Positions 3,380 to 37,456 of a DNA stretch of 64,000 bases are shown here, piece by piece. The notes beneath the pieces were generated by a model. That model had not been told where the DNA came from, searched no databases, and was given only the letters and a program-made list of their open reading frames with translations. Source of the stretch: Bacteroidota bacterium (GTDB taxonomy: Bacteria; Bacteroidota; Ignavibacteria; SZUA-365); assembly GCA_049663345.1 (NCBI GenBank), contig JBATDG010000087.1:33695-97694 (forward strand), in the 5' to 3' direction. How positions within the stretch are numbered: position 1 is the stretch's first letter; every line of letters starts with the position of its first letter. A program made the position numbers and the translations under genes.

Positions 3380-4915
3380 CTATTCAAGATTTCCGATGGT
3401 ACTTTCTACGTTTTCCAAGATAGTATTTTTTTGCACTAGTTCAGCGGTGCGGCGAAGATCTTCAAACATCAAACGGTCTGCATCGAGGTGAGGTACAGAC
3501 TGTCGGATAATGTTATGCGCGACGCGCGTGCCGCGGCCGAGTCCCATTGGCAAATGGAAATCAAGAGCCTGAGCCGCGGTCATAAATTCCACCGCCAGCA
3601 CGTTCTCTACATTGCGCATGATCTGCCAGGCCTTTCGTGCGCCAATGGATCCCATGCTGTTGTGATCCTCCTGATTCGCAGAAGTAGGAATTGAATCCAC
3701 GCTCGCCGGATGCGAGAGAACCTTGTTTTCCGAAACCAGAGAGGCCGCAGTATACTGCGCGATCATAAGGCCGCTGTTGAGTCCTCCCTTTGCGGTGAGA
3801 AAGCGGGGGAGTCCGCTCAGTTTTCCATTCACCATCCGTTCAGTGCGGCGCTCGGAAATACTGGCGAACTCTGACAAGGCTATGCCGAGGAAATCCGCTG
3901 CAAGGGCCACCGGCTGTCCGTGAAAATTCCCACCTTCGACGAGAGATCGGGTCTCCGCGAATATGAGGGGATTATCCGTTGCCGAGTTGATTTCACAGAG
4001 CAATACATTTTCAACGTAACCGATCGCATCGCGCGAGGCCCCGTGAACCTGCGGCATGCAGCGCAAAGAGTACGCATCTTGCACCGCGTCATGTCCGTCC
4101 CGATGCGACTCGCGAATTTCACTCTCATCCAAAAGACGCAGGATATTGCGCGCGACCGCCTGCTGTCCGGGATGCGGCCGCACCGCATGCAGGATCGGGT
4201 TGCAGGCATTTGTGGTGCCGAGCAATCCTTCGAGCGTCATGGATCCCGCGATATCGAACTGCCGCGCAAGCGCTTTTGCCCTTGCGGTCGTCCAGCTCAA
4301 ATATGCCGTCATCATCTGCGTACCGTTGATCAAGGCCAGACCTTCCTTCGCAGCAAGCACCACGGGTTGTAGTCCATGTGCCTGCAGTGCCTCGGCTGCG
4401 GGACGCGGAGTCCCGGTCGCACTCCACACTGTTTCGAGTCCCATCATCCCGCAAACCAGGTGCGCGAGCTGCACCAGATCGCCGCTTGAGCCGACGGATC
4501 CTTGAGAAGGAATCACCGGAATGATATCGGCATTGAGCATCGCAAGCAGCAACTCGACGGTACTCACCCGTATCCCGGAATATCCTTTCGCAAGCGCGTT
4601 GGCGCGCAGCAGCATGAGGATGCGGGTGATATGTTTCGGCATGGGATCGCCGCAGCCGACTGCGTGGCTGATGATAAGGTTGCGCTGCAGCTGCTCGAGC
4701 TGATCGCTTCCGATATGCACATTGCTGAATTCACCAAAGCCCGTAGTGATGCCATACATGACCTTGTTGTCGCGCACCCATTCATCAACCAATGCACGCG
4801 ATGCCTGCATGCGCGGAAGGGCCTCGGCGGATAGCTCCACCGTGCAGTCCCCGGCCGCCGCAATGAGTACATCTTCCAGTGTGAGAGAATTGCCGTCAAT
4901 CGTGAGCGTTTTCAT
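3380..4915 (-). CDS. Aromatic amino-acid ammonia-lyase of the HAL/TAL/PAL family (MIO cofactor type). At 511 aa it is HAL-sized, and its substrate is not resolved
   Basis: Family signature GSVGSSGDLVQLAH (the MIO-forming triad reads Ser-Ser-Gly rather than Ala-Ser-Gly), plus the N-terminal GITTGFGEF motif. Confidence 0.8.
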   Translation of the reverse strand: MKTLTIDGNSLTLEDVLIAAAGDCTVELSAEALPRMQASRALVDEWVRDNKVMYGITTGFGEFSNVHIGSDQLEQLQRNLIISHAVGCGDPMPKHITRILMLLRANALAKGYSGIRVSTVELLLAMLNADIIPVIPSQGSVGSSGDLVQLAHLVCGMMGLETVWSATGTPRPAAEALQAHGLQPVVLAAKEGLALINGTQMMTAYLSWTTARAKALARQFDIAGSMTLEGLLGTTNACNPILHAVRPHPGQQAVARNILRLLDESEIRESHRDGHDAVQDAYSLRCMPQVHGASRDAIGYVENVLLCEINSATDNPLIFAETRSLVEGGNFHGQPVALAADFLGIALSEFASISERRTERMVNGKLSGLPRFLTAKGGLNSGLMIAQYTAASLVSENKVLSHPASVDSIPTSANQEDHNSMGSIGARKAWQIMRNVENVLAVEFMTAAQALDFHLPMGLGRGTRVAHNIIRQSVPHLDADRLMFEDLRRTAELVQKNTILENVESTIGNLE

Positions 4916-11208: not shown

Positions 11209-11240
11209 GGGGAGGGGCTTCGGCCCCTCCCATCTGTTTT
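11209..11240 (+). terminator. Rho-independent terminator
   Basis: GGGAGGGGC-TTCG-GCCCCTCCC stem followed by a T-rich run. Confidence 0.7.
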
Positions 11241-32113: not shown

Positions 32114-32175
32114 CCGTATGCATCGGTAGCAGAGAGACGACCGGGCTAGTCCGAAAGCACTATTCAATTCATTCC

Positions 32176-32195
32176 CTATGCAGATCCCTGCATAG
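32176..32195. promoter_or_regulatory. Perfect 8-bp inverted repeat CTATGCAG-ATCC-CTGCATAG inside a motif (CAATTCATTCCCTATGCAG) shared with the paralogous site at 34788..34835. It is a candidate operator
   Basis: Read directly. The paralogous intergenic region carries an expanded 16-bp palindrome built on the same TGCAG core. Confidence 0.5.
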
Positions 32196-32403: not shown

Positions 32404-32419
32404 TGGCACGATTTGTGAA
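32404..32419 (+). promoter_or_regulatory. Sigma-54-like -24/-12 promoter candidate (TGGCACGATTTGTGAA). The -24 box is perfect and the -12 box is degenerate
   Basis: TGGCACG sits about 55 nt upstream of the start codon at 32476. The paralogous position at 35014 has a full consensus. Confidence 0.4.
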
Positions 32420-32475
32420 CAAATAAGGGAGAATCGAAGACTAAGCTCATGATGTTTTATGAGGAAAGTGCTGTG

Positions 32476-34263
32476 ATGAAAAATCAGATACCGATTGGTA
32501 AAACAATTATCCTTGCAATTACACTATGCATGTTCGGATTCGGGACGCAGGCGAGTGCAGCAACACGGACTTGGTCCGCTTTTGCGGCTACCACTTCATG
32601 GGGGACTGCCTCAAATTGGGTTGAGAATGCAGTCCCAGCTTCTGGTGATGACGTTGTTTTCCTTAATTCCGCTACTGTGGTACTCGAGAGTGCGACTCAA
32701 ATCGGTACATTGACACTTTCCGCTGGTGCGGACGTCGGCTTCACCGCGAACGGCCTGCTAACCATCACAGGAACGCTTACCTTGGGTGCGGGATCAGAGA
32801 TCAATCTTGGGAATGGAACAGCCTCCTACCCGCTGCAATTAAATGGAAATATCCTTTTTGCTGATGGCAACAGTGCATCGGATCCTACTAGAATCTACTC
32901 TTCAGTCATCCCTTGGAAGCTTATCAAAATCAGCAGTGCTTCTCACATCTCCATGGGAGGAATTGCGAACGCTTACTTTGGTGATCATACGACGACGTTG
33001 ATCCAGCTAAATGCACAGCCATTCACTTCGGATGTTCGATTTGAGGGTAATCTTCAATTCACTACGACAAACAACATTCTGCTTGGGGCGAATAACTTAT
33101 ATCTGGGCAAGTCTTGCGAACTCACAGTTACTGCGGTATTCCCTAGTGGTGATGGATTTATTGCGACTGACGGTACCGCAGCAACTCCGCAAGGGACTGT
33201 GCGCCGTCAGTTTGATGCTGTAGCCGATTCATTTTATTTCCCTGTTGGCCCTGTCGGTGGACGAATGTCGCCGATCCGCATCAAAATTATTCCACCATCA
33301 ACTAGTGCTATCTTTACATCCGCTTCACCCTGGCCGTATATCTCTGTCCGCTGTTTGTTAAATTCGAGCGGATCGACAGGCGGACATCCGATGAATTTTG
33401 ATAATTCAAGAATCTGGGTGTATTGGCCTGTGAAGGGCGTCGGGATTTCGGAGCCTGCTTATCTTTCAGGCCGAATGTACCTCCATACGAATTATCGTAG
33501 CGGAGATCCTAAAATCTATTCTGCTCGTTGGACTCCGAACTACGAAGACCTCGGTTCGCTTGGAATATGGGATTTGACTGGCTCCTTACCCGGAACGACA
33601 ACAGGGAATACTCGGGAGGTGCCCTTTTCTGGATGCCCGGGTTTCGGAGACTTTAATATTGGAACAGGAATTGCCGGCGATCCTCTTCCCGTCGAACTCA
33701 CTTCCTTCAGCGCCCGCTACATTGATCGTTCGGTGCGGTTGAACTGGAACACAGCGACGGAGCTGAATAACTACGGCTTCTCGATCGAGCGTTCGCAGGA
33801 CAATGAGACATGGGAAGAAGTCGGCTTTGTGGAAGGCTACGGCACTTCGCTTAGTCCTAAGAGCTACACTCATACGGACATGCTGACGGATGACCTCGCG
33901 AAGGTTCCGCAGCTGGCCTATCGTCTGCGTCAGATCGATCGTGACGGCACCACGGATTACTCGAATATCGTGTTTGTGAAGACGGGCACATTGCCCGCGG
34001 GCGTAGAAATGTACGCTGCATATCCGAATCCCTTCAACCCCTCCACGACGCTGAGCTTTACGATTCAGGACCCTGCGACTGTGAATCTGAAGGTGTACAA
34101 TACCTTCGGTCAGGAAGTCGCAACCCTGCTGAGCAGCAGTGCGATGGATGCGGGCCTGCACACGGTCTCCTTTAATGGAGAGCAGCTCCCGAGCGGCGTG
34201 TACATGGCAGTGCTGGAGGCGAACGGTACGCTGCAGCAGCAAAAGTTTGTGCTCAACAAGTGA
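32476..34263 (+). CDS. Adhesin-like secreted protein: signal peptide, beta-helix-like N-terminal repeats, conserved pre-CTD module and a T9SS C-terminal sorting domain
   Basis: Signal peptide MKNQIPIGKTIILAITLCMFGFGTQASA. N-terminal TRTWSAFAATTSWGTASNWVENAVPASGDDVVF (autotransporter-passenger-like repeat). LNWNTATELNNYGFSIERS module. C-terminal YPNPFNPSTTLSFTI...GVYMAVL tail. Confidence 0.75.
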   Translation: MKNQIPIGKTIILAITLCMFGFGTQASAATRTWSAFAATTSWGTASNWVENAVPASGDDVVFLNSATVVLESATQIGTLTLSAGADVGFTANGLLTITGTLTLGAGSEINLGNGTASYPLQLNGNILFADGNSASDPTRIYSSVIPWKLIKISSASHISMGGIANAYFGDHTTTLIQLNAQPFTSDVRFEGNLQFTTTNNILLGANNLYLGKSCELTVTAVFPSGDGFIATDGTAATPQGTVRRQFDAVADSFYFPVGPVGGRMSPIRIKIIPPSTSAIFTSASPWPYISVRCLLNSSGSTGGHPMNFDNSRIWVYWPVKGVGISEPAYLSGRMYLHTNYRSGDPKIYSARWTPNYEDLGSLGIWDLTGSLPGTTTGNTREVPFSGCPGFGDFNIGTGIAGDPLPVELTSFSARYIDRSVRLNWNTATELNNYGFSIERSQDNETWEEVGFVEGYGTSLSPKSYTHTDMLTDDLAKVPQLAYRLRQIDRDGTTDYSNIVFVKTGTLPAGVEMYAAYPNPFNPSTTLSFTIQDPATVNLKVYNTFGQEVATLLSSSAMDAGLHTVSFNGEQLPSGVYMAVLEANGTLQQQKFVLNK

Positions 34264-34302
34264 GAGTGGAAAGAGAGAGAGCACATTAGCCGAAGACGTG
34301 AA

Positions 34303-34326
34303 GGCGGGGTTTTGAGAGGCCCCGCC
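34303..34326 (+). ncRNA. Conserved stem-loop in the cargo 3' region (GGCGGGG-TTTTGAGAGG-CCCCGCC) with no downstream U-tract
   Basis: The paralogous hairpin at 36927..36960 keeps the loop (TTGTGAGAGG) while both stem arms change in a compensatory way. Confidence 0.5.
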
Positions 34327-34376
34327 TCTCACGCATTCTCTGAAGAATTTGGAAGGAAACAGGTTGGAAACAGTGA

Positions 34377-34691
34377 ATGCAAATGGGAATCGATCAGCGG
34401 AGCAGAGTTATAATGGAGATACCGTTTTCGTTTTCGCAGTATGCGTATCCGTTGAACCCAAGTGCGACCGTGAGCTTTACCCTGGAAGAACAACAGGAAG
34501 TCTCCTTGAGGATTTATAACACGTTCGGACAGGTAGTGCACACGCTCTACGAAAACGTTCAGATGAAAGCCGGATACCATGAATTGAGGCTCTACGGCGA
34601 AACCTTCCCCTCAGGTGGATGCTACGCCAGGCTTCATACAAAAAATGGAGTTCAGCAGCGCACATTGGTGCTGAGCACCGACAACAACTGA
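34377..34691 (+). CDS. CTD-only minigene: a free-standing T9SS C-terminal sorting domain (104 aa) with no signal peptide and no cargo domain
   Basis: The whole ORF matches the Por-tail (YAYPLNPSATVSFTL...GGCYARL). It is about 80% identical to the second minigene at 37051..37365, and both ORFs are intact. Alternative start M13 (34413). Confidence 0.55.
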   Translation: MQMGIDQRSRVIMEIPFSFSQYAYPLNPSATVSFTLEEQQEVSLRIYNTFGQVVHTLYENVQMKAGYHELRLYGETFPSGGCYARLHTKNGVQQRTLVLSTDNN

Positions 34692-34736
34692 CCCCTGAGG
34701 CTACAACCAAGGTAGGTTGATAAAGATTGAGAGGAG

Positions 34737-34766
34737 AAAAAAGTCCGCCGCAAGCGGGCTTTTTTC
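34737..34766. terminator. Bidirectional rho-independent terminator
   Basis: A-run, stem AGUCCGC/GCGGGCU with loop CGCAA, then a T-run. Confidence 0.6.
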
Positions 34767-34801
34767 TTGTTACAGGGTGGAGGTATGCAATTCATTCCCT
34801 A

Positions 34802-34835
34802 TGCAGTGGATTGCATATCTATGCAATCCACTGCA
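34802..34835. promoter_or_regulatory. Perfect 16-bp inverted repeat TGCAGTGGATTGCATA-TC-TATGCAATCCACTGCA, preceded by the shared CAATTCATTCCCTATGCAG motif. It is a candidate operator
   Basis: Read directly. Confidence 0.5.
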
Positions 34836-35013
34836 TGCTATTTTCATTAAGATCACATATAAATAATCACGGGTGCGATTTAGGAAAAAGATGCTATATC
34901 TTAAATTACCAGTTGGAGGAAGCTGGCTATCTCGTTGTTTAGCTTTATCTAGCCGCTCATCTCATGAGGGCGTCAATGAGGACAAAGCATATCTTCAATA
35001 GAACGGATACTTT

Positions 35014-35029
35014 TGGCACGTTTTATGCA
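35014..35029 (+). promoter_or_regulatory. Sigma-54 -24/-12 promoter (TGGCACGTTTTATGCA), with the GG and GC dinucleotides at consensus spacing
   Basis: Matches TGGCAC-N5-TTGCA at every position except one. It lies 60 nt upstream of the start at 35090. Confidence 0.6.
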
Positions 35030-35089: not shown

Positions 35090-36891
35090 ATGCAGAAATA
35101 TAGACTGTTTGTGAAAATCGGCCTGCTGGCGGCAATCCTTTTCTATATGGGACTCGGATCTGACGCCTTCGCTGTCACCCGGACCTGGGTAGGTGTCGGA
35201 CTTGGCAATTGGAACACTGCTCTCAACTGGAGGCCTAGCAGCGTCTCGGGTATTACCGGAAACACCGGTGATGCCGTGATTATTAACACCGTCTCGACGA
35301 TTACCATGAATGCTTCTTCAAACATCACGATCGCATCATTGCCCATTTCTGCGTCGAGTGTTGGACTCATTTCGGATAAAAAGATAACCACAGGGTCATT
35401 GACGGTTTCAGGTTCACTTGTTCTCAGCTATGTGAGTGCTGGAGGTGCGGCGAACAATATTTTTGATATCACCGGTGCAATGAGCCTTACTGCTCCGGTA
35501 TTATCTCTCGCTCGGGTTCCTGGGTGAGTACGGATGTCAAGATAAATATCGGCAGGAGAGGTACAGGCACAATAACCATGGCGGCGATTGCGAATAATTA
35601 CATCGCCTACCATGTCAACACTAGTATTGCTCGCAAACCTGTCCTGCTTTCCGATGTGAGATTTGAAGGAGACATTAATCTGCCTTCAGGAATTTCTCTT
35701 GGCACTGATGACCTGTATCTAGGGATCAACGCAGACGTGCTTACTCCGAATGCTGAAATCGGTGACCCAGGGAACTGCATCGAAGTTTCCGGCGGGAATA
35801 CAACTCCCTCCGGTGTTGTACGCAAACAGTATACTGCCGTAAATGACGCGTTCACCTTTAATGTGAGTCCCGGTACCGGCCGGTTGTCGCCCATCACGAT
35901 CAAGGTCATCAGCCCGACGCCATCCTCCTCATTTACAAGTGCTGTTCCCTGGCCGCATATCTTTGTCCGCGTCGTTCTCAATAATGGTGGAAACGGCGGA
36001 CACCCCGCGAATCAGCAGTCGCAAAAAGTCGGGGTTCACTGGCCGGTTAAAGGCTACGGAATCAACACTCCGGTATATTTCTCCGGTGTAATGACTTCCC
36101 ATAACAACTACAGGAACGGATCAGCTAACGATCTGTATTCAGCCCGCTACGCTCCAAGCTACGAAGATAACCTTTTTAATAGCGGTTGGGACCTCACCGG
36201 AACACAGCAAGTCACGACTACGAGCGGTGACCTTCGAAGCGTCCCGTTTAACGGCTTCCCCGGCTTTGGTGATTTCACCATCGGTTTTGGAGATCCCTTT
36301 GGCGGCGACCCTGTACCCGTCGAGCTCACTTCCTTCAGCGCACGCTATATCGATGGTTCGGTTCGCTTGAACTGGAATACCGCGACCGAGCTTAATAACT
36401 TCGGCTTCGCCATCGAGCGTTCGCAGGATTCGAAGAACTGGGAAGAAGTCGGCTTCGTGCAGGGCTACGGAACTTCCAGCAGCCCGAAGAGCTATTCGCA
36501 TACCGATGTGCTTACGGACGACCTTGCACGCACTCCGCAGCTCGCTTACCGTCTGCGTCAGATGGATCGCGACGGCACAATTGATTACTCGAACATCGTT
36601 TTTGTCAAAACGGGCGAACTGCCCGCCGGCGTCGAACTTTACGCTGCCTATCCGAATCCCTTCAACCCCGCAACTACGATCAGCTTTACTGTCAAGGAGT
36701 CTGCGAACGTAAACCTGAAGGTGTACAACACCTTCGGTCAGGTAGTCGCGACCCTGCTCAGCAACAGCTCAATGGATGCCGGCCTGCACACGATGTCGTT
36801 CAACGGAAATGACCTTCCGAGCGGCGTGTACATGGCAGTGCTTGAGGCGAGCGGTGAACTGCAGCAGCAGAAGCTTGTGCTCAACAAGTGA
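35090..36891 (+). pseudogene. Paralogue of cargo gene 32476..34263. It is split by a frameshift near 35520 into ORFs 35090..35527 (signal peptide plus N-terminus) and 35524..36891 (beta-helix, pre-CTD module, T9SS CTD)
   Basis: The two ORFs jointly align along the full length of the 604-aa paralogue (145+455 aa). The frame changes from phase 2 to phase 1. This could be a genuine pseudogene, a sequencing error or programmed slippage. Confidence 0.55.
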
Positions 36892-36926
36892 GAGTGGAAG
36901 AGGTGAGTGAGCACAATTAATCGATA

Positions 36927-36960
36927 CGCGAGGCGGAGTTGTGAGAGGCTCCGCCTCGCG
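36927..36960 (+). ncRNA. Conserved stem-loop (CGCGAGGCGGAG-TTGTGAGAGG-CTCCGCCTCGCG), paralogue of 34303..34326
   Basis: Same loop sequence with covarying stems. Confidence 0.5.
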
Positions 36961-37050
36961 TAAGATTTAAAGTGAAAGACGGACTGGGGAATTAGGAATT
37001 ACGAATTAAGAATTACGAATTACGAACTTTGAAGAAGCAGGAAAGAGTTA

Positions 37051-37365
37051 ATGGAGCTGGGAATGGAATCGCGGAACAGAGAAAAGATGGATATTCCGTT
37101 TACATTTTCGCAGTATGCGTATCCGTTGAACCCGAGCGCAACTCTGAGTTTCACCCTTGACGAAGCACAGGAAGTGTCGCTGAAAATTTACAACATGTTC
37201 GGACAGGTGGTGCGTACGCTCTACGAAAGGGTTCAGATGAAAGCCGGGTACCATGAATTGAGGCTCTATGGAGAGACCTTTCCGGCCGGAGGTTGTTACG
37301 CGCGGCTCCACACAACAAAGGGAGTTCAGCAGCGCACGTTGATGCTGAGCACCGAGAATTCCTGA
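37051..37365 (+). CDS. CTD-only minigene 2 (104 aa, free-standing T9SS C-terminal sorting domain)
   Basis: AGGAAAG ribosome-binding site 7 nt upstream of the ATG. The sequence FSQYAYPLNPSATLSFTL...GGCYARL is about 80% identical to 34377..34691. Confidence 0.55.
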   Translation: MELGMESRNREKMDIPFTFSQYAYPLNPSATLSFTLDEAQEVSLKIYNMFGQVVRTLYERVQMKAGYHELRLYGETFPAGGCYARLHTTKGVQQRTLMLSTENS

Positions 37366-37412: not shown

Positions 37413-37456
37413 AAAAAAAGTCCGCCGTACGCAGTTTGCCGTAGGCGGACTTTTTT
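37413..37456. terminator. Bidirectional rho-independent terminator
   Basis: A7-GTCCGCC...GGCGGAC-T6. Confidence 0.7.

Follow-up and report, generated by a model that had tools for sequence, protein, structure and literature searches.

The question raised by this locus is what a stable hairpin does between a T9SS cargo gene and the short gene behind it, here called the minigene, an arrangement found twice in the window (the whole 64,000-nucleotide stretch of DNA analyzed). The two copies are tandem paralogous modules that share 85% DNA identity over the C-terminal sorting domain (CTD), spacer, minigene, and terminator. Each runs in the same order, from a sigma-54-type -24/-12 match through the cargo gene, the hairpin, and the minigene to a terminator composed of an A-run, a GC stem, and a T-run. 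The features of the modules outside the hairpins are the following:

32404-32419, + strand: sigma-54-type -24/-12 match upstream of cargo gene 1 (TGGCACGATTTGTGAA, 2 mismatches)
32449-34263, + strand: cargo gene 1, 604 aa, with a weak G8 domain match and a T9SS CTD
34377-34691, + strand: minigene 1, 104 aa from the first ATG, with a conserved core from the ATG at 34413
34734-34768, + strand: terminator after minigene 1, canonical A-run, GC stem, and T-run
35014-35029, + strand: sigma-54-type -24/-12 match upstream of cargo gene 2 (TGGCACGTTTTATGCA, 1 mismatch)
35090-36891, + strand: cargo gene 2, with a T9SS CTD, split in two ORFs (35090-35527 and 35524-36891)
37051-37365, + strand: minigene 2, 104 aa, with the core from 37087
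37413-37456, + strand: terminator after minigene 2, canonical A-run, stem, and T-run

Both cargo genes end in a Por_Secre_tail CTD, and cargo gene lengths range from 455 to 604 aa. The module pair is flanked by sigma-54 activator genes and PAS histidine kinases, and synteny is conserved in relatives, where a sigma-54 activator, a PAS histidine kinase, Mrp/ApbC, and NifU come after one or two cargo-minigene modules. A second MAG (GCA_049289355.1, contig JBATLO010000176.1, annotated 'Bacteroidota bacterium') has the sequence of the window, with 100% identity across the module. The minigene always lies directly 3' of a T9SS cargo gene possessing its own CTD, and its product (92-104 aa across modules) is CTD-like with no signal peptide. 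With 67 homologues, all of them unannotated, and dN/dS values of 0.03-0.15, which correspond to strong purifying selection, the minigene is a real gene. Between the two window copies the minigene dS is ~0.9, and the segmental duplication is therefore old. A fusion of cargo and minigene by recoding or stop-codon read-through was rejected, as there is no relation between the stop positions and cargo and minigene are read in different frames. A metagenome scan with the minigene returned distant generic CTDs only, and the literature searched on T9SS, CTD, sigma-54, and Ignavibacteria contained nothing on the cargo-minigene module.

Two side observations concern the modules themselves. The halves of cargo gene 2 are a 145-aa ORF, which has a signal peptide, and a 455-aa ORF in another frame, with a 4-nt overlap between them; in L035/L036, one pair of related loci, the orthologue is a single 613-aa gene, and the split is possibly a frameshift, a pseudogene, or an assembly error. 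Inverted repeats that come after a repeated CAATTCATTCCCTATGCAG were noted at window positions 32164-32195 and 34787-34837 (CTATGCAG-ATCC-CTGCATAG, and a palindrome of 16-17 bp at 34800-34837), just 3' of the preceding terminators and ~200 nt before the sigma-54-type promoters. L037 has a similar sequence, and these repeats are plausible candidates for activator binding sites.

The original prediction, made from the two window copies, described one hairpin as GGCGGGG-TTTTGAGAGG-CCCCGCC at 34303-34326 (+) and the other as CGCGAGGCGGAG-TTGTGAGAGG-CTCCGCCTCGCG at 36927-36960 (+). Both sequences are present at exactly those coordinates, and both stems reach further outward, hairpin 1 reading CGTGAA GGCGGGG ... 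CCCCGCC T(C)TCACG over its full extent:

34297-34333, + strand: hairpin 1, with its 5' arm at 34297-34309 (CGTGAAGGCGGGG) and its loop at 34310-34319 (TTTTGAGAGG)
34320-34333, + strand: 3' arm of hairpin 1 (CCCCGCCTCTCACG), C34328 bulged
36925-36962, + strand: hairpin 2, with its 5' arm at 36925-36938 (TACGCGAGGCGGAG) and its loop at 36939-36948 (TTGTGAGAGG)
36949-36962, + strand: 3' arm of hairpin 2 (CTCCGCCTCGCGTA)

Each hairpin lies 33 nt 3' of the cargo stop codon. The MFE fold of hairpin 1 contains 16 bp, with a dG of -25.5 kcal/mol when trimmed and -29.6 kcal/mol with flanks (z -5.4), and hairpin 2 consists of 14 perfect bp plus two U.G pairs, with a dG of -31.1 to -34.1 kcal/mol (z -7.9). 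Not one of 200 dinucleotide-preserving shuffles folded as stably as either, and the two rank among the strongest hairpins of the 64-kb window. Between them, the inner stem shows one double change from G-C to A-U and the outer stem one from U-A to C-G, and the loops differ at a single position out of 10. As the window copies are paralogues of an old duplication, these two alone are insufficient to show selection.

We therefore turned to relatives, which were retrieved via the minigene protein from species-representative genomes and a large protein collection. This yielded ~31 readable modules from at least 14 related MAGs or metagenome contigs. A strong simple hairpin was found in ~27 of these modules, 15-65 nt after the cargo stop and upstream of the minigene, with stems of 9-20 bp (mostly 13-16) and a dG of -20 to -35 kcal/mol; the hairpin-bearing loci are W1 and W2 in the window and L001-L010, L026-L028, L030, L031, L033, and L035-L037, and the hairpins of L004a, L006b, L027b, L029a, and L032 were assigned by eye. 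A search with a covariance model built from eight hairpin copies, the check proposed with the original prediction, recovered three further module copies, all at cargo-minigene junctions, and nothing else convincing in the window. A dispersed repeat of the REP/BIME type was rejected on the same ground, the model's matches being confined to these junctions in the window and the loci. Rfam gave no relevant match, either at the gathering threshold for the window and five loci or at E values up to 5 for both modules; the best overlapping match was sX7 (E = 1.7, 18.9 bits vs a gathering score of 55).

Some modules have departed from this pattern. L027b keeps a remnant of the 5' arm only, L029a has a 5-bp stem, and in the class B modules (L008b = L034b, L028b, and three in L032) a large multi-stem fold in a 180-230-nt spacer replaces the simple hairpin. 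Because it has been lost or nearly lost in the first two and class B carries a different structure, the simple hairpin is not indispensable at the cargo-minigene junction. The class B spacers lie at:

L028:3834-3992: class B spacer
L032:867-1030: class B spacer
L032:2104-2270: class B spacer
L032:3831-3992: class B spacer
L034:6980-7140: class B spacer (= L008b)

A long stem closes their structure of ~145 nt, which has two hairpins inside it and a conserved core, GGAUGCGGGAACGAUGAGUAGCGGCAU. RNAalifold predicted 45 pairs, of which 6 show compensatory change (5 copies, 3 genomes), and Rfam contained no match to the class B spacer.

Selection on the simple hairpin was assessed in a structural alignment of 20 homologous copies, which was hand-curated, N-padded, and fitted to the structure, a source of bias, with bulged bases dropped. 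We chose a hand alignment because MAFFT mis-registered the divergent 3' arms and the covariance-model alignment mixed both strands. In the inner helix, the position-homologous core of GGCGGGG type for which the counts are conservative, 160 of 160 cells were paired and 6 of 10 pairs had changed on both sides. This result was matched by 1 of 500 column shuffles, and when partners were slid by 1-3 columns, pairing was 49-62% with 0-3 double-changed pairs. Because bulges shift the register, stacking order was used to align the outer helix, which inflates the counts for the whole stem (99.3% of cells paired, double-sided changes in 14 of 19 pairs). Individual comparisons gave the same kind of exchange, G-C to A-U, between L006a and L006b, between L009 and L010, and, with G.U intermediates as well, between W2 and L037b. 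Because related loci covary and the hairpin recurs in ~27 modules, the stem is, on this comparative evidence, a selected structure in which pairing has been kept rather than sequence. The proposal of selection first drawn from two copies thus extends to the relatives, where double changes accompany 99-100% paired cells.

For the loop, the proposal held only in part. Its 10 nt, TTKTGAGAGG, are indeed kept, and more strictly than their flanks, within the window subclade (the window MAG, L035/L036, and L037; three genomes, two paralogue lineages), but conservation ends there, since sister lineages carry GCAA, UACG, UCCG, CGCG, CATCGC, CACGU, UUGGAGA, AUAGCGG, and other loops in its place. Within the subclade the loops of L035b/L036b and L037b are TTGTGAGAGG, identical to that of W2, and the loop of L035a/L036a is TTGAGAGG. 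The loop, identical at 8-10 of 10 positions in every pair, is conserved better than any other part of the hairpin; the stems differ among themselves by compensatory and G.U changes, the unpaired linker is identical at 5-8 of 11-13 positions in divergent pairs, and the 30-nt tail at ~43-77%. In L004a, two consecutive hairpins (L004:2268-2328) occupy the junction, the first being GGCGGGAC-UACG-GUCCCGCC and the second having a loop, UUUGGAGAGG / TTTGGAGAGG, that resembles the window loop; stable stem and loop motif here appear split between two structures.

A second stem-loop, P1, lies just upstream of the hairpin:

34248-34285, + strand: P1 stem-loop copy 1, TGTGCTC / GAGCACA around a purine-rich loop
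36876-36915, + strand: P1 stem-loop copy 2

The cargo stop codon (TGA at 34261-34263) and GUGAGAG both fall within the loop of copy 1. The general pattern is GTGCTCA, a purine-rich loop of 18-24 nt that includes the cargo stop, and GAGCAC, and it is present in 22 of 22 modules of the closer clades (window, L001-L007, L026, L027, L035-L037). As its stem is invariant, with a C to U change giving U.G in L027b as the sole exception, P1 allows no covariation test. The last ~10 cargo codons at P1 are invariant even at wobble positions, and L006a, L006b, and L027b have an intact P1 copy beyond the stop codon, where it is hence noncoding.

It could be argued that the loop UUKUGAGAGG and the P1 loop are bound by a protein or by 30S, with GAGG as a Shine-Dalgarno-like core and the stem merely presenting the loop, and that such binding would control minigene translation or mRNA fate. 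Within the window subclade the loop does outconserve the rest of the hairpin, and it has been kept although 60-65% of the adjacent minigene's synonymous positions differ between W2, L035b, and L037b. A similar loop, TTTGGAGAGG, stands on the separate hairpin of L004a, L007 has TTGGAGA, and the invariant P1 displays the same GUGAGAG heptamer. Nevertheless, we consider recognition of the loop rather unlikely. Most relatives use GNRA, UNCG, or other loops instead, the motif has no further occurrence in the 64-kb window beyond hairpins 1 and 2, and RNA targets complementary to the loop are not enriched (42 matches vs 51 expected); the sample is also small, at three genomes and two paralogue lineages, and purine-rich matches come easily in a 68%-purine spacer. 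A more far-reaching version, which we regard as doubtful, is that P1 and the P2 hairpin, with GUGAGAG-type purine loops, form a dedicated cis-regulatory RNA of the T9SS cargo-minigene junction that is read by a factor or the ribosome. It is similarly doubtful that this RNA couples expression of the cytoplasmic CTD-like minigene to cargo translation or secretion, with the 145-nt class B structure filling the slot elsewhere. If true, type IX secretion substrates would have an RNA motif and a regulatory circuit not described before.

We next asked whether the hairpin ends transcription, taking as a U-tract at least ~5 U within the 8 nt directly after the stem. Both window hairpins are GC-rich stem-loops of the kind found in canonical intrinsic terminators (roughly 5-15 bp), but their tails, CATTCTCTGAAG and AGATTTAAAGTG, have 3-4 T within the first 8 nt and no T-run, and a terminator consensus scan of the window did not list them. 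The same holds for T-runs in 23 of the 27 copies, the window pair included; the remaining four, L006a, L006b, L007, and L027a, belong to one subclade and have T-runs of 4-8. In contrast, 16 of the 17 minigenes examined, and both minigene-less cargo paralogues (L026 and L037), end in canonical terminators with A-run, stem, and T-run. Since the same genomes use T-run terminators at transcript ends, the missing U-tract at the junction is not house style. The view that the hairpin is not a canonical terminator was thus borne out for the window genome; as a general statement it was too broad, because in the four copies with a T-run the hairpin looks, from its tail, like a true terminator. An ordinary terminator at window positions 11210-11231 (GGGAGGGGC-UUCG-GCCCCUCCC, with a T-rich tail), which gave a weak covariance-model match, shows the canonical terminator style of the window genome.

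Between hairpin and minigene, the spacer contained no sigma-70-type or sigma-54-type promoter match. A sigma-54 promoter in the conserved GGTTGGAAACAGTGAATGCA before the minigene was rejected, its GG-to-GC spacing being one base too long and the scan giving no match. From what is established about rut sites, the purine-rich, C-poor spacer would also be a poor Rho loading site. The hairpin might still act as a leaky intrinsic terminator or attenuator at which some polymerases stop, so that read-through is the sole source of minigene expression and each lineage sets the leak by how long its U-tract is. Terminators typically have such a position and such a GC-rich stem, the T-runs of the four copies directly follow the stem, and even the window tails keep some T. 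L007, moreover, has no room for a promoter between T-run and minigene, so minigene expression there must come from read-through. What makes a leaky terminator unlikely is that 23 of 27 copies have no T-run while their genomes use textbook T-run terminators, and that in vitro termination is inefficient at hairpins lacking a U-tract, as demonstrated with mycobacterial RNA polymerase. There is likewise no conserved anti-terminator pairing: a TGAGAGG/CCTCTCA alternative exists in copy 1 but neither in copy 2 nor in relatives, and inspection of sequences and alignments for riboswitch or attenuator folds revealed no conserved mutually exclusive pairing. A search of the literature on U-tract-less terminators in Bacteroidetes found nothing about the cargo-minigene module.

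The position of the hairpin bears on which of the two genes it serves. The distance from the cargo stop (15-35 nt in most copies) varies far less than that to the minigene core start codon, which is 28-187 nt, or ~36 nt less when counted to the first ATG where present. This argues against a 5' stabilizer or processing signal for the minigene, whose mRNA would begin with a protective structure after a papBA-like cut upstream of the hairpin or RNase III cleavage in the stem. Processing of the papBA type is documented (PMC5927463), the hairpin does lie upstream of the minigene, and stems of 13-20 bp approach RNase III substrates. Most stems, however, fall below the roughly 20 bp (about two helical turns) of typical RNase III sites, and the T-run variants point to a role at a 3' end, making this quite improbable.

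The original prediction had assumed a structure in RNA, and the strand comparison agreed. The 21 folded copies contain 19 G.U pairs, against two non-standard cells in the structural alignment, both A.C. In 18 of the 21 copies the fold is more stable on the + than on the - strand (mean -27.8 vs -25.5 kcal/mol; Wilcoxon p = 0.0015, with copies not fully independent). Of the 8 loops in the tetraloop subclade, 7 belong to the GNRA or UNCG classes (GCAA five times, UACG, and UCCG), which are exceptionally stable in RNA; these tetraloops are a sign of selection for RNA thermodynamic stability, not sequence. Outside the hairpin, the + strand of the spacer is 68% purine and 15% C, vs 26% C for the window. 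By virtue of the G.U pairs, + strand energies, GNRA/UNCG loops, and spacer composition, the sequence evidence points to a sense-strand RNA element. A DNA palindrome (dimeric-regulator operator, recombination site, or cruciform) or a neutral duplication relic is very improbable: a near-perfect inverted repeat does adjoin genes controlled by transcription factors and the two window copies are paralogues, but complementarity alone and not half-site sequence is conserved, G.U pairs, bulges, and energy asymmetry favor one strand, RNA-specific stable tetraloops recur across related modules, and retention of the hairpin across lineages with near-saturated synonymous sites rules out the relic.

Taken together, these data lead us to rank a stability element or decay barrier first among the three roles originally proposed (processing or stability, protein binding, and attenuation), which are indistinguishable from sequence. 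We put it as an even chance that the hairpin is an internal 3'-protective structure of the decay-terminator type within a read-through bicistronic cargo-minigene mRNA. What is observed is a selected structure, with its strand and its position, the absence of a U-tract, and canonical terminators where transcripts end, and, as in decay terminators, a stable intercistronic structure lies 3' of the upstream cistron and is conserved among relatives. Read-through is suggested because the junction has no T-run, the spacer has no promoter match, and a canonical terminator follows the minigene. Transcription would start at the sigma-54-type promoter upstream of the cargo gene, polymerase would pass the hairpin, since the U-tract needed for efficient intrinsic termination is missing, and transcription would stop at the terminator after the minigene. 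In the RNA, the GC-rich stem of 13-16 bp would block 3'-to-5' exonucleases and might also be a weak pause site. Endonucleolytic cleavage in the purine-/AU-rich spacer downstream would then leave the cargo cistron with a protected 3' end and the minigene part to decay faster, and the outcome would be a high cargo-to-minigene ratio from a single promoter. Of these steps, we infer co-transcription from the promoter and terminator positions, and we likewise infer exonuclease blocking and differential decay.

Several findings stand against the protective hairpin. A pure stability element leaves unexplained both the destabilizing 10-nt loop conserved in the window subclade, which we treat as a lineage-specific add-on, and the invariant P1 just upstream. 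The T-runs of L006a, L006b, L007, and L027a, the loss or near loss in L027b and L029a, and the class B replacement also count against it.

We note some further features of the spacer. About 8 nt after the hairpin there is a conserved element, GAAGA(G)AAUUUGGAAGG / TGAAGA(G)AATTTGGAAGGA (window 34341-34357, L037 about 3395-3415), and W1 and L037b share 23 of the 30 nt of their tails. The element at 34341-34357 contains GAAUUU, which fits the RNase E motif RN|WUU. Window positions 36990-37026, in the spacer between hairpin 2 and minigene 2, hold five tandem 7-nt GAATTAC-like units, and ATTACGA repeats are common to the window, L035b, and L036b. It is speculative, from motif resemblance, that the RN|WUU-like sites in the tail element and the GAAUUAC repeats are candidate endonuclease entry points.

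If the hairpin is indeed protective, the locus would illustrate cleanly, in uncultured bacteria, how an internal RNA structure sets operon stoichiometry. The element has unusually clear phylogenetic support, with compensatory changes, replacement by GNRA/UNCG loops, and gain of a U-tract in one lineage, and the variant series illustrates how a single element can move between decay barrier and terminator. The practical value is modest, namely that these hairpins are not to be annotated as operon ends and that a covariance model is provided. The more interesting lead is the context, a T9SS cargo paired with a signal-peptide-less CTD-like minigene; as far as literature searches show, the cargo-minigene module, P1, and the class B spacer appear to be undescribed.

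Among known systems, intercistronic structures that protect a 3' end occur in malE-malF, puf, and many E. coli operons, are widespread in enterobacterial operons, and are conserved between species (PMC5927463). The closest are the E. coli malE-malF REP hairpin, the Rhodobacter capsulatus puf stem-loop, and the structures of Dar & Sorek 2018 (PMC5927463). As in malE-malF and puf, a stable stem-loop without a U-tract follows just after the first cistron, its structure is conserved, and a canonical terminator ends the operon. Unlike REP, the window hairpin is not dispersed and is tied to a module of T9SS cargo and CTD-like minigene in uncultured bacteria of the Bacteroidota group; unlike malE-malF and puf, it combines a 10-nt loop conserved within a lineage with a further, invariant stem-loop spanning the stop codon, and its protective function is putative. 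With Rho-independent terminators it shares a GC-rich hairpin 15-65 nt after a stop and, in L006a, L006b, L007, and L027a, the T-run, but 23 of 27 copies have no T-run, and a conserved gene without a detectable promoter of its own follows. The mccA-mccB intergenic region of the microcin C operon, where intercistronic termination fixes the proportion of the first gene relative to those downstream (PMC4231749), also carries a hairpin after the first gene, giving rise to an abundant short RNA as well as a longer one made by read-through. That hairpin is reported to be a real terminator dependent on the translating ribosome, and its first gene encodes a heptapeptide vs the 455-604-aa cargo here (PMC4231749). 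Intercistronic protective or attenuating hairpins are thus a known kind, and it is there that the window hairpin is best filed.
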